From an uncultured Gemmataceae bacterium (GTDB taxonomy: Bacteria > Planctomycetota > Planctomycetia > Gemmatales > Gemmataceae): a DNA stretch of 64,000 nt. The DNA lies in contig CAVVPN010000003.1 of the NCBI GenBank assembly GCA_963750165.1, positions 480,001 through 544,000 on the forward strand, in the 5' to 3' direction. Made by a program: the position numbers and the translations under genes. Below the pieces are notes generated by a model. That model was given only the letters and a program-made list of their open reading frames with translations, did not search any database and had not been told where the DNA came from. Shown in pieces: positions 46,943 through 58,271 of this stretch; position 1 is the stretch's first letter, and each line of letters starts with the position of its first letter.

Positions 46943-47006
46943 TCCGCGGCAGCGGCGATGTGGTCTTCACCGTGGAGCCGCGAGCGAAGAAGTAAAAGAA
47001 TTAGAG

Positions 47007-47096
47007 TCGTCATGAACTGAAGTTCACCCAGAGTTCATGAAAATTGGCCGCTACTACTGAACGTACCATCAGGAATGCGGCCTATTCACAGAGCAG
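47007..47096 (+). mobile_element. 90-bp non-autonomous mini-IS110-like unit
   Basis: Starts TCGTCATG..ATGAAAAT and ends TATTCACAGAGCAG, mirroring both ends of the adjacent IS110. Confidence 0.65.
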
Positions 47097-47156
47097 TGGT
47101 CATGTGGCTGCGCGACTCCCTGAAACGATGAAAATGGGGTCAGCGCCGGCTATGTT

Positions 47157-47310
47157 GTCTGTAGCTTTGCTCTGGATGAAGGCCGATTGTCGCTTGGTGC
47201 TTCGAGCCCGCAGAGCCGTGTGGCCTGGACATCGCCACGAACCCGAAACTGTCGCCCCGACCGTCGGGGAGCACGCAGGGTAGATTGGTGCTTTTTGCGA
47301 TGTCCTCCGG
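47157..47310 (+). ncRNA. Candidate IS110 bridge RNA (element 1; ends approximate)
   Basis: Structured left non-coding end downstream of ATGAAA-17-TATGTT; contains CAGGGTAG identical to the element's right end. Confidence 0.5.
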
Positions 47311-47335
47311 GGCAGAGCCGAATCCGGAGGCTGCC

Positions 47336-48574
47336 CTGGACATTCTCTACCGTTGTTGTGCCGGACTGGACGTTCACAAGAAGACCGTGGTCGCCTGCGT
47401 GCGCCGGGTCGATGGGGCCGGGGCAGCGTCTCAGGAGATCCGCACCTTCGGGACCATGACCTGCGATCTGCTGGTCTTGTCCGATTGGCTGGCCGAGCAG
47501 GGCGTGGAACAAGTGGCCATGGAATCGACCGGCGTTTACTGGAAGCCCGTGTTCAACCTCTTGGAAAGCCGCTTCGCCGTACTGCTGGTCAACGCCCAGC
47601 ACAGCAAGCAGGTGCCCGGGCGCAAGACGGACGTCAAGGATTGTGCCTGGATCGCGCAGTTGCTGCAACATGGTCTGCTCCGCGCCAGTTTCGTGCCCCC
47701 GCCGCCGATCCGGGAGTTGCGCGACCTGACGCGGCAACGTGCCCAGTTGGTCGTCGAGAAGGCCACCGCAGCCAACCGCATCCAGAAGGTGCTGGAGGAC
47801 GCCAACATCAAGCTGGCCTCGGTCGCCACGGACGTGCTGGGGGTTTCCGGCCGGGACATGCTGGAAGCGCTCATCGCCGGTGAGGACGCTGCGGAGAAGC
47901 TGGCCGACAAGGTGCGCAAGCGGCTGCGCAACCAGATCCCTGCCCTGCAGAGCGCCCTGCGCGGGCGCGTGACCGCGCATCATCGCTTCCAGCTGCGGTT
48001 GCTGCTGGATCACGTGACGCATCTGGAGGAACTGATCGGCCGGCTGGGGAGCCGGATCCAGGAGGTGATGGCCCCTTTTGCCGAGGCGGTGGCGCGGCTG
48101 ACGACGATCCCGGGGGTGGAGCAACGCGCGGCGGAGACCGTGATCGCGGAGATCGGACCGAACCTGGAGCAGTTCCCCAGCGCCGACCATTTGGCGTCGT
48201 GGGCGGGGATGTGCCCAGGGAATAACGAGAGCGCCGGCAAGCGTCAGAGCGGCCGGACGACCAAGGGGAGTCGGTGGCTGCGGCAGATGCTGACGCAAGC
48301 GGCCTGGGCGGCCAGCCACACGAAGGACACGTATGTGGCGGCGCAGTACCGGCGGCTGGCGGCGCGTCGGGGCAAGAAGCGTGCGTTGGTGGCCTTGGGT
48401 CACACGCTCTTGGTGATCATATACCACCTGCTGAAGCAGCGAACGACCTACCAGGAGTTGGGCGGAGACTTCCTGGAGCGCTTGGAGCCGGACCGGCAGA
48501 CCCGGCAACTGGTCAAACGACTGGAGAAGTTGGGCCATAACGTCATCCTACAACCAAAAGACGATGCCGCCTAA
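47336..48574 (+). CDS. IS110 family recombinase/transposase
   Basis: GLDVHK, MESTG, KTDVKD (DEDD); CPGNNESAGK; GGAGG RBS precedes a CTG at 47336. Confidence 0.95.
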   Translation: MDILYRCCAGLDVHKKTVVACVRRVDGAGAASQEIRTFGTMTCDLLVLSDWLAEQGVEQVAMESTGVYWKPVFNLLESRFAVLLVNAQHSKQVPGRKTDVKDCAWIAQLLQHGLLRASFVPPPPIRELRDLTRQRAQLVVEKATAANRIQKVLEDANIKLASVATDVLGVSGRDMLEALIAGEDAAEKLADKVRKRLRNQIPALQSALRGRVTAHHRFQLRLLLDHVTHLEELIGRLGSRIQEVMAPFAEAVARLTTIPGVEQRAAETVIAEIGPNLEQFPSADHLASWAGMCPGNNESAGKRQSGRTTKGSRWLRQMLTQAAWAASHTKDTYVAAQYRRLAARRGKKRALVALGHTLLVIIYHLLKQRTTYQELGGDFLERLEPDRQTRQLVKRLEKLGHNVILQPKDDAA

Positions 48575-48593
48575 CTGGTTATTTTCAGGGTAG

Positions 48594-48713
48594 CAGTTCC
48601 CAGTCGCGTGGACCACAAGTCGTGGGACGGCTCTCCAGAGCCGTCGGGAGAACGCTGACGGCTCTGGAGAGCCGTCCCACGACTTGTGCGCTACCCAAAC
48701 GCGAACCGCTCTA
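48594..48713. mobile_element. Palindromic MITE carrying a REP hairpin; left tip displaced to 47002-47006
   Basis: Rejoined left end TAGAG|CAGTTC matches the reverse complement of GAACCGCTCTA at 10/11; inner 32-bp arms at 48614-48645 and 48657-48688. Confidence 0.7.
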
Positions 48714-48768
48714 GTTAACAGGGTTCGAGCACTGGGATTTCCGCCCAGCGCTCGAACCCTGTTAACTA
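48712..48768. terminator. Long hairpin (terminator or repeat) downstream of the Cys/Met-rich gene
   Basis: TAGTTAACAGGGTTCGAGC..GCTCGAACCCTGTTAACTA. Confidence 0.5.
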
Positions 48769-48791: not shown

Positions 48792-49253
48792 TCAGCAGCA
48801 GCAGACGGGCATGCCGTTCATCATGACGCAGCAGGTGCAGCCGGCGGTCACCATGGCGCTCATGCAGTCGCAGCAGGACTGAATCATGGCGCTGCAGTCC
48901 TTGTCGCCGCTGGTGCAGGTGATGCACACGCCGTCCTTGGTCATCTCGCACTTGCACATGCCCATCGTCAGGTTGCAGCAGCACATGACCATGCCGTTCA
49001 TCAGGCAGCAGCAGCTGCACATGGTGCCGGCCAGCGACGTACACAGGTTCTGCAGCGTGGTCGCGGCCATCTTGTCGTCACAGACGCACGTGACCTTCAT
49101 GCCGCCCGTGACCTTCTCGAACTTCATCTTGCAGCGCGGCATCATCGCCACGTTCATGGGCATCATGCCCGGCATGGGCGTGCCCATGGTCGGCGTCATC
49201 ATGCCGGGCATGCCCATGCCCAGGTTCGTCGGGTTCGTCATTGTGTTCATCAT
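48792..49253 (-). CDS. Cys/Met-rich hypothetical protein
   Basis: 153 aa with 25 Cys and 30 Met (hand count); internal two-fold repeat; AAGGAG upstream; high-GC3 codons. Confidence 0.8.
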   Translation of the reverse strand: MMNTMTNPTNLGMGMPGMMTPTMGTPMPGMMPMNVAMMPRCKMKFEKVTGGMKVTCVCDDKMAATTLQNLCTSLAGTMCSCCCLMNGMVMCCCNLTMGMCKCEMTKDGVCITCTSGDKDCSAMIQSCCDCMSAMVTAGCTCCVMMNGMPVCCC

Positions 49254-56756: not shown

Positions 56757-58271
56757 ATGACGGCACCCACGGCCAGACACCCACCCGCCTCCCCGCCTCC
56801 CGGCGCCCAGCCCGCGCAGGCGCCGGCCCACCGCCAGGCCTACCGCCGGCGCAAGACCCGGGCCCAGGACCGGCGCGACGCCCGTCAGCGGCGGGAGGCC
56901 GCCCGGGTCGAGGCCCTCCCCCTGCAACGTCCGCACGCCGCCGGCATCGACGTCGGCTCCCGCTCCCACTGGGTCTGCGTCGGCTTCACCACCGACGCCC
57001 ACTCCGGCTTGATTCAAGAGTTCCCGGGCCACACGGCCGGCCTGCAAGCCGTTGCCGCCTTCCTGCGGGAGCATCAGGTCACCTCGATCGCCCTGGAATC
57101 GACCGGCATCTACTGGATCCCCCTGTACGAACTGCTCCAGGCCGAGGGGTTTGAGGTCCTGCTGGTCGATCCCAGCTACAGCCGCCAATTGCGCGGGCGC
57201 CCCAAGACGGACCGCCGCGACTGCCAGTGGATCTACCGGCTGCACAGCGTCGGCCTGCTGGCGGCGGCCTTCCGGCCCGATGAGCGGACCTGCCAGTTAC
57301 GGGCCTACCTGCGGCAGCGGGCCAACGTGATCCGCCAGGCCAGCCAGCACGTGCAGCACCTGCAAAAGGCGCTGGAGCAGATGAACCTGAAGCTGACGGA
57401 GGTCCTCAGCGACATCACGGGCCTCACCGGGCGGGCCATCCTCCGGGCGATCCTGCGCGGGACGCGGGCGCCGGAGAAGTTGGCCAGGTACCGCGACAAG
57501 CAATGCAAGGCCAGTGAGGTGGAGATCGCCCAGGCCTTGACCGGGTCGTACCGGGAAGAGCACCTGTTCGAGCTGAGGCTGGCCTACGAGGCCTGGCAGT
57601 TCTCCCTGGGGCAAGTGGCGAAGGTGGACGCGCAGGTCGCCCTGCAGTTGGGGCGGATGAAGTGCGACCGCGCCTTGCCGCCGCTGAAGCCGAAGGCGCG
57701 GCCGAAGCGCCGCGCCGACTCGCCCCGCTTCGACGTGCGGACGGCGTTGTACTACGTGGTCGGGTTGGATTTGACGGAGATCGAAGGGGTCAGCGACTTG
57801 ACGGCGCTGACCGTGGTCAGCGAGATCGGCCCGGGGGTGTCGCAGTTCGCGACGGTGAAGCAGTTCTGTAGCTGGCTGGGGCTGTGCCCCAACTGGAAGA
57901 AGACGGGCGGCCGGGTCAAGTCCAGCCGGACGCGCCGGGGGGTGAACCGCGCGGCGCAGGCGCTGCGGCTGGCGGCCCAGAGCCTGCACCACAGCCAGGG
58001 GGCCCGGGGCGGGTTCCTACGGCGCATGAAAGGGCGGCTGGGGGCGCAGGCGGCCGTGACGGCGACGGCGCACAAGCTGGCGCGCATCGTCTACCTGGCG
58101 CTGAAGCACGGCCTGCCGTACGTGCGTCAAAGTCAGGAGGAGTACGAGGCCCAGATGAAAGAGAAGCAGATCAAGGCGCTGTGGCGGAAAGCACGCCAGC
58201 TGGGACTGGACATCGTTGAGCAGGCGGCGGCCGGCGCTCCGGCAGCGGCCGCGGCGTCGGCGCAGGGGTAA
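56757..58271 (+). CDS. IS110 family recombinase/transposase
   Basis: GIDVG, LESTG, KTDRRD (DEDD); CPNWKKTGG; ATAHKLAR. Confidence 0.95.
   Translation: MTAPTARHPPASPPPGAQPAQAPAHRQAYRRRKTRAQDRRDARQRREAARVEALPLQRPHAAGIDVGSRSHWVCVGFTTDAHSGLIQEFPGHTAGLQAVAAFLREHQVTSIALESTGIYWIPLYELLQAEGFEVLLVDPSYSRQLRGRPKTDRRDCQWIYRLHSVGLLAAAFRPDERTCQLRAYLRQRANVIRQASQHVQHLQKALEQMNLKLTEVLSDITGLTGRAILRAILRGTRAPEKLARYRDKQCKASEVEIAQALTGSYREEHLFELRLAYEAWQFSLGQVAKVDAQVALQLGRMKCDRALPPLKPKARPKRRADSPRFDVRTALYYVVGLDLTEIEGVSDLTALTVVSEIGPGVSQFATVKQFCSWLGLCPNWKKTGGRVKSSRTRRGVNRAAQALRLAAQSLHHSQGARGGFLRRMKGRLGAQAAVTATAHKLARIVYLALKHGLPYVRQSQEEYEAQMKEKQIKALWRKARQLGLDIVEQAAAGAPAAAAASAQG

Follow-up and report, generated by a model that had tools for sequence, protein, structure and literature searches.

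The window considered here, i.e. the whole stretch of 64,000 nucleotides that was analysed, comes from a genome (G000) of 9.6 Mb that is 93% complete. Two insertion units lie in tandem within it, at the tip of a palindromic repeat, and their parts are collected in Table 1. The upstream unit, a gene-less derivative referred to below as the mini, has the form TCGTCATG...ATGAAAAT...TATTCACAGAGCAG, and the downstream unit, a full element of the IS110 group, has the form TGGTCATG...ATGAAAAT...TATTTTCAGGGTAG. Their boundaries, the motifs at their ends and the AG found at each of three junctions (47005-6, 47095-6 and 48592-3) are as described in the initial annotation of the sequence, and the right boundary of the full element was obtained independently from three contigs of public runs, all of which end at 48593.

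Table 1. Features of the two-unit locus, in window positions
Feature	Position	Strand	Remarks
Left tip of host palindromic repeat (TAGAG)	47002..47006	+	AG core at 47005-47006
90-bp non-autonomous IS110 mini	47007..47096	+	12 copies; DNA fold z -3.9
Mini, left end	~47007-47044
Mini, hairpin spacer	~47046-47082
Mini, right end ...CAGAGCAG	47089-47096
Full IS110-group element	47097..48593	+	Single copy in G000
Inner left-end segment, directly repeated by donor loop 5′ strand	47116..47127	+	Putative displaced donor match
Probable internal promoter (ATGAAA, 17 nt, TATGTT)	47128..47156	+	Predicted
Predicted bridge RNA region with two guide loops	47165..47310	+	Fold z -1.67 (weak alone) and covariation
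Target loop 5′ strand, pairing with core and right flank	47186..47194	+	Covariation
Target guide CAGAGCCG (relatives: CAGAGCAG), spelling the right end found in the mini and in sibling elements	47211..47218	+
Donor guide CAGGGTAG, identical to the right end of this element	47276..47283	+	Covariation
IS110 recombinase gene, 412 aa	47336..48574	+	Pfam domains
Right end TTTTCAGGGTAG with AG core	48582..48593	+
Rest of ~125-bp palindromic REP-like repeat	48594..48713	.

The host repeat was represented in G000 by 21 matches of at least 94% identity over at least 110 bp, 20 of them other copies. It is apparent that 17 of those 20 begin with TAGAGCGGTTC and are thus empty at the tip that is occupied in the window, as had been anticipated. 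With AG at every junction and empty tips of this form, insertion took place at the AG core and no target duplication was produced. The tip restored by removal of both units had been described as the inverted partner of GAACCGCTCTA; this holds for 10 of the 11 bases, and the partnership is imperfect, the window having CAGTTC and the consensus CGGTTC. With TA at both ends and a length of ~125 bp, the repeat could be either a MITE or a REPIN-like doublet. The intervals between loose copies of its ends (seven pairs of >700 bp) revealed no transposase gene when the longest ORF was assessed by eye, and none of the four Y1_Tnp matches in G000, considered as possible Y1_Tnp/RAYT partners, has a copy of the repeat within 1.5 kb. 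A second, unrelated palindrome of 57 bp (48712-48768) adjoins the host repeat and gave 13 BLAST rows in G000, on both strands. On the other side, the 59 bp preceding the insertion (46947-47004) match the end of a gene at G000:C4:951149-951207 with 95% identity, and the repeat that comes after the gene there differs from the one in the window.

The protein encoded by the full element contains the DEDD_Tnp_IS110 (PF01548, E 5.9e-28) and Transposase_20 (PF02371, E 1.3e-23) domains, both over the cut-off, and its closest transposases are records from Planctomycetota; no PDB match was obtained with phmmer at E≤0.001. Residues D12, E63, D99, D102 and S299, which we take to be catalytic by analogy with IS621, are invariant. 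The element occurs as a single copy in G000, where the other full-length IS110 matches are at most 52% identical to it and two short C-terminal fragments are 64-71% identical to its recombinase. The bridge RNA region is situated within a left end of approximately 240 bp, and the right end comprises approximately 19 bp. The element in the window looks damaged: the recombinase gene opens with CTG in place of the ATG of relatives, Ser stands at a position where Ile is conserved, and C47217, at the core of the target guide, is A in four contigs from three public runs. These three changes may be mutations or consensus errors.

A -10-like hexamer was observed 16-18 nt past the ATGAAA motif in 31 of 79 distinct elements (the sample is described below), whereas non-overlapping offsets gave 1-6 of 79. 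The minis keep ATGAAA in their left ends, and none of the 12 in G000 has a -10-like hexamer scoring at least 4/6. This pattern suggests that full elements carry an internal promoter that would have been lost by the minis; a strict sigma-70 scan for a promoter in the full element returned nothing. Expression of the RNA and present activity of the element are judged here from sequence. The contigs compared came from 4 of 22 public runs, with at most 11% of sequence words shared; they show relatives only, and neither a circle junction nor RNA ends were seen in them.

With regard to the mini, BLAST and motif searches of G000 revealed 12 gene-less IS110 units in all, so that the proposed search for others yielded 11. 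Ten of the 12, measuring 88-90 bp, are close copies with 73-100% identity, and the other two (77 and 86 bp) are distant ones with the same ends and other flanks. Because these ten and two copies share their ends, the mini is not a chance arrangement. TTAGAG precedes all 10 close minis, as against only 0.027% of AG sites, and repeat sequence (e.g. CGGTTC or TGGTTC) comes after nine of them. Each mini is built from a left end of approximately 38 bp, a hairpin spacer and a right end of approximately 14 bp, and the fold of the window copy as single-stranded DNA is better than that of 200 out of 200 shuffled sequences. The proposal of a non-autonomous IS110 derivative that consists of ends and lacks a guide is borne out for the mini, which exists in multiple copies: both ends are present, there is no recombinase, and several copies lie at the programmed target of a helper. 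Its mobilization in trans, which had also been proposed, is indicated by the copy number and the flanks.

The same architecture was found in 15 of 252 genomes of the family, including G000, with 42 matches and none in a reversed control. Among 30 units retrieved from those 42 matches, 28 measured 86-93 bp. A short-spacer pattern was found in 2 of 208 genomes, both instances being doubtful, and a long-spacer pattern in 3 of 208. Units of 66 bp (locus L005), 102 bp (locus L157) and approximately 150 bp (genome G002) were also observed. Ninety base pairs is therefore the commonest size of a mini and not the minimum, as shown by the units of 66 and 77 bp. The suggestion that the mini would define the minimal donor of this recombinase family is contradicted by those natural units, and also by IS621, for which a donor of 22 bp is reported to be used in trans (PMC11208160).

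A conserved structured RNA in the middle of the mini was considered and rejected, since RNAalifold, applied to seven hand-cut segments, gave four pairs and almost no covariation. Neither the mini nor the bridge RNA region had an Rfam match at the gathering score; below it, only hairpin-driven miRNA matches were obtained. In genome G006, the three minis that were retrieved, out of five present, have their first ~41 bp and their programmed flank in common with a resident full element, and the same is true of the mini in genome G001 (n=1). This sharing is the best natural evidence from which movement in trans would be deduced. Minis L248, L261, L247, L254 and L245, which come from several genomes, together with window positions 47050-47075, have a common TGAAC...ATCA core in the spacer, with left ends that differ and match those of local full elements, and with little structural covariation.

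Guides were mapped across relatives of the full element. The loci comprised 79 from genomes, 80 from metagenomes (the best 80 of ~590 confirmed stretches per scan) and that of the window, a total of 160, of which 91 were parsed and yielded 79 distinct elements. The 69 unparsed loci comprised 39 with no target guide, 20 with no left end, 6 with no right end, 3 at an edge and 1 with no donor guide. The parser demanded guides ending in AG, and the window's own variant was explicitly permitted. The 8 nt after GCCCG, i.e. the target guide, repeat the left flank and the core, with an average of 4.85 of the 6 non-core bases matched (n=79), compared with 1.87±0.13 (maximum 2.39) in shuffled controls. 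The 8 nt after GCACG, i.e. the donor guide, match the element's own right end (5.66 versus 3.32±0.13 when shuffled, n=79), and the 5′ strand of the target loop pairs with the right flank (3.69 versus 2.33±0.14, n=77), poorly so (4/9) for the window's own right flank. No signal was obtained between the 5′ strand of the donor loop and the outermost left-end bases (3.03 versus 3.03); that strand instead repeats bases lying 20-31 bp into the left end (5.37 versus 4.12±0.13, n=63). These margins are overstated, because the shuffles ignore kinship, but the matches are visible row by row across the elements.

When these assignments are applied to the window, the target guide agrees with the right end of the mini at 7 of 8 positions, and the relatives' form CAGAGCAG agrees at all 8. 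The corresponding values for the repeat tip are 2/8 and 3/8. Since the target guide fits the end of the mini and misses the repeat tip, the full element appears to have been aimed at the mini and not at the repeat. To judge from the guides, the mini and the full element did not use the same target. The adjacent IS110 was examined as the helper of the mini and was rejected on account of the mismatch between its guide and the repeat tip; it is probably not that helper.

A better candidate was found in a different IS110, termed family B, which is present in G000 only as four truncated remnants. All four stand after TTAGAG and have the TCGTCATG start and the CACCCAGAG.TCATGAAAAT motif, as do the close minis, and the family B target strands CGTTAG(A/C)G and TGAATCGCT spell the repeat tip. 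In three of the four remnants the guide core is CG rather than AG. Neither G000 nor the matches in the 252 genomes of the family yielded an intact copy of family B. One remnant (L209, G000:C11:300521-300655) stops precisely at the DNA encoding its own target guide, and a remnant from a different genome (L198, G010:C112) starts exactly past its target guide DNA; it appears that guide-coding DNA was mistaken for a left junction in both, giving self-targeted deletions. The replacement of A by C at the guide core occurs in both families (window 47217; remnants C4:900694, C11:1579149 and C11:1956506), and is possibly inactivating or possibly a guard against self-targeting. Transposase-less elements of approximately 330 bp were also observed (G000:C3:1242450-1242776, C3 ~1243490-1243678 and C4 ~1041350-1041620), two of them without a left end. 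They contain a bridge-RNA-like region in which the donor guide, CAGGGCAG, fits the right end of five close minis, and they could supply donor-loop RNA in trans.

The insertion of a full element behind the right end of another was observed in further genomes. G001, from the same family as G000, contains four copies with recombinases 86-88% identical to that of the window, and all four follow TTTTCCGAGCAG. Upstream of them lie a 91-bp mini in one case and a full host IS110 with the same left end as that mini in another, the remaining two sites having no element. The 12-mer TTTTCCGAGCAG occurs seven times in G001, against 1,970 occurrences of the 8-mer C(A/C)GAGCAG; the target guide agrees with the flank at all but one base (7/8). 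The pattern of guide plus context was found in only 2 of the 252 family genomes, G000 and G001. The possibility that TTTTCCGAGCAG lies within the left end of the docking element was rejected, as the mini in the window ends like its nine close free-standing copies and, in locus L083, a TTTTCC...GGAAAA palindrome straddles the insertion point. A 201-nt public contig crosses a related mini-IS junction.

In G002, a lineage at 57% identity with the guide AAGAACAG has nine copies, seven of which lie directly behind right ends of the host family. Five host-derived minis, two full host elements, one right end of the lineage's own (a donor-type tandem) and one non-element sequence were found upstream. 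Seven of the nine family-type right-end motifs in this genome are occupied, as against 632 AGAACAG 7-mers. Composites of mini and IS may have moved as units in G002, so that the sites would not all be independent, with at least three distinct types of upstream unit. A third lineage is represented by L157, a single metagenome contig, in which the preceding 102-bp mini ends in the guide sequence, CATAGGAG. When docking was mapped on a quick maximum-likelihood tree, its presence in four elements required three changes, a number as low as that being obtained in 26 of 500 shuffles; the three could be one gain and two losses. Another relative, in L031 (~1220), has the guide CAAAAAAG and is situated at TTTTAAAAAAAG, which we take to be an IS3-type frameshift motif from its appearance.

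The reading that we favour, to which a probability of approximately three in four may be given, is that the locus would have arisen in two RNA-guided insertion steps, each the work of a different IS110 element from a single AG-core subfamily, with the second element docking on the right end of the mini. A family B helper, acting in trans, would have placed the mini at the repeat tip TTAG-AG-C(G/A)GTTC; both the identity of this helper and the order of events we infer from flanks and guides. A second IS110, with the target guide CAGAGCAG, would then have inserted at the right junction of the mini, giving the head-to-tail arrangement. CAGAGCAG equals the commonest Planctomycete-type right end of the AG-core subfamily; sibling elements and their minis would serve as the preferred landing pads of this second element. 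There are 382 CAGAGCAG sites in G000, and an 8-nt guide is too short for the selectivity observed, so a second layer of specificity is needed; an additional preference for the subterminal motif TTT(T/A)C probably narrows the choice of site. A second specificity layer has been reported for ISPpu10 (10.64898/2026.03.19.712850).

Other explanations of the junction were weighed. The donor loop of the full element, and not its target loop, might have recognized the right end of the mini as similar to its own. Half-match and DBL-DBL reactions are reported for IS621 (10.64898/2026.08.31.748434), donor half-matches are kept at the boundaries of tandem repeat units (10.64898/2026.08.14.744561), and the pattern can be seen in L190, L005 and L117, where the target guide does not fit the right end lying upstream (4/8). 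In the docking elements, however, the target guide outperforms the donor guide (7-8/8 versus 6/8 in the window, 7/8 versus 5/8 in G001 and 6-7/8 versus 4/8 in G002), and their target guides fit no other flank, which makes this explanation unlikely. It is similarly improbable that the target is an ordinary chromosomal one, which came to resemble sibling ends by drift or by copying of the donor loop, with docking a by-product of a liking for TTT.C-N5-AG. Such an origin would accommodate the sites at which no element lies upstream, i.e. two of four in G001 and one of nine in G002. A left flank like a right end was found in 10 of the 79 elements, four of them (L064, L107, L138 and L152) having no upstream element, and a broad preference for TTT.C may play a part; only 4 of the 79 combine docking with a guide that matches. 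Against it are the occupancy of family-type right ends in G002 and the occurrence of the pattern in three separated lineages, whose guides differ and fit the ends of their respective local hosts.

The initial annotation had the adjacent IS110 as the helper and the repeat tip as the target of both units, at a site that collects cassettes. The AG core and the end motifs are indeed common to the two units, and ISPpu9 and MITEPpu9 are reported to act in this way (PMC12288879). We consider that model very improbable, given the poor fit of the target guide to the repeat tip described above, the divergence of the left ends of the mini and the full element outside the shared motifs, and the single copy of the full element. 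Two insertions have been taken at this site, as a cassette-like behaviour would have it, but the other 11 minis stand alone, none having a further left end behind it.

Parts of this arrangement have precedents. ISPpu9, an IS110-group element of Pseudomonas putida KT2440, has an AG core, end boxes of 43 and 16 bp and REP targets, and its non-autonomous module MITEPpu9 occurs alone or in tandem and forms circles that require the transposase (PMC12288879). The tandem arrangement of a full element and a non-autonomous IS110 module within REP sites is thus already published (PMC12288879). The window resembles that system in its AG core at the junctions, its long left and short right ends, its REP-like target and the occurrence of the module both by itself and beside a full element; a native promoter in the left end, as opposed to a junction promoter, is also a feature of ISPpu9 and is only predicted here. 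The two differ in that MITEPpu9 carries the ssr9 sRNA gene between its A′ and B′ boxes, whereas the mini in the window consists of ends and a hairpin: it has ~38 bp between its ends, no -10 after ATGAAA and no Rfam match. Moreover, MITEPpu9 is found downstream of the element that serves as its helper, the ends of the two being nearly identical, while the mini lies upstream of the full element and would belong to a different one.

The element in the window is read as working like IS621 (PMC11208160), with a different layout. Features in common are the DEDD and Transposase_20 recombinase, a long non-coding left end with two guide loops, guides that match target and donor, a 2-bp core, REP targets and a donor that would be mobilized in trans, as the 22-bp IS621 donor is when recombined with bridge RNA. 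The core differs, being AG on the coding strand and CT on the other, and the order of the guides is therefore reversed with respect to IS621. In addition, the fourth guide matches the segment 20-31 bp inside the left end and not the donor bases beside the core.

The growth of tandem IS110 loci has been put down to donor half-matches (10.64898/2026.08.14.744561; 10.64898/2026.08.31.748434). Expanded loci with non-coding repeat units beside the transposase (n=468) and with tandem modules (n=437) have been described (10.64898/2026.08.14.744561), and transient tandem cargo repeats have been reported for CazIS110-1 (10.1101/2025.10.25.684509). The window shares with the expanded loci repeated insertion at occupied sites. 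For those loci it is ascribed to half-matches by the donor of the resident element, whereas in the window the junction would be explained by the target guide of the second element.

Elements of the IS110/IS1111 type that target the ends of other elements include IS4321 and IS5075, found in Tn21-type inverted repeats. The docking described here would likewise represent RNA-guided parasitism of the terminus of another element. It differs from theirs in that a right end belonging to the same IS110 subfamily is targeted, with the element landing just outside the host and leaving it uninterrupted. No published IS110 target guide aimed at the right ends of sibling IS110 elements was found in the sources covered, which lay outside ISfinder/TnPedia, most subscription journals and bioRxiv supplements.

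By itself, the mini is a further example of the published MITEPpu9-like kind. The docking lineage, if confirmed, would provide a guide-level cause of tandem IS110 arrays besides the donor half-match, and a natural case of a bridge recombinase landing on the donor end of another. It seems more likely than not that some IS110 lineages have programmed the target guide against sibling right ends at least three times, a form of RNA-guided piggybacking within one family that would build head-to-tail arrays at harmless, pre-selected sites, and that in the AG-core subfamily the fourth guide is directed at a site 20-31 bp inside the left end. The latter position would explain why minis keep ~40 bp of the left end and why their sizes cluster at 86-93 bp. 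The AG-core subfamily is widespread and uncharacterised, with a donor guide that is apparently displaced, and the covariation map and the size-clustered minis constitute ready substrates for defining its donor.

Two further observations were made downstream of the locus. A small protein rich in Cys and Met, with CCC motifs and no Pfam match, is encoded on the minus strand at 48792-49250, and its relatives are plentiful in one public RNA run. A second, distant IS110-family gene (32% identity) is situated 10 kb downstream, at G000:C3:536940-538223 (window ~56940-58223).
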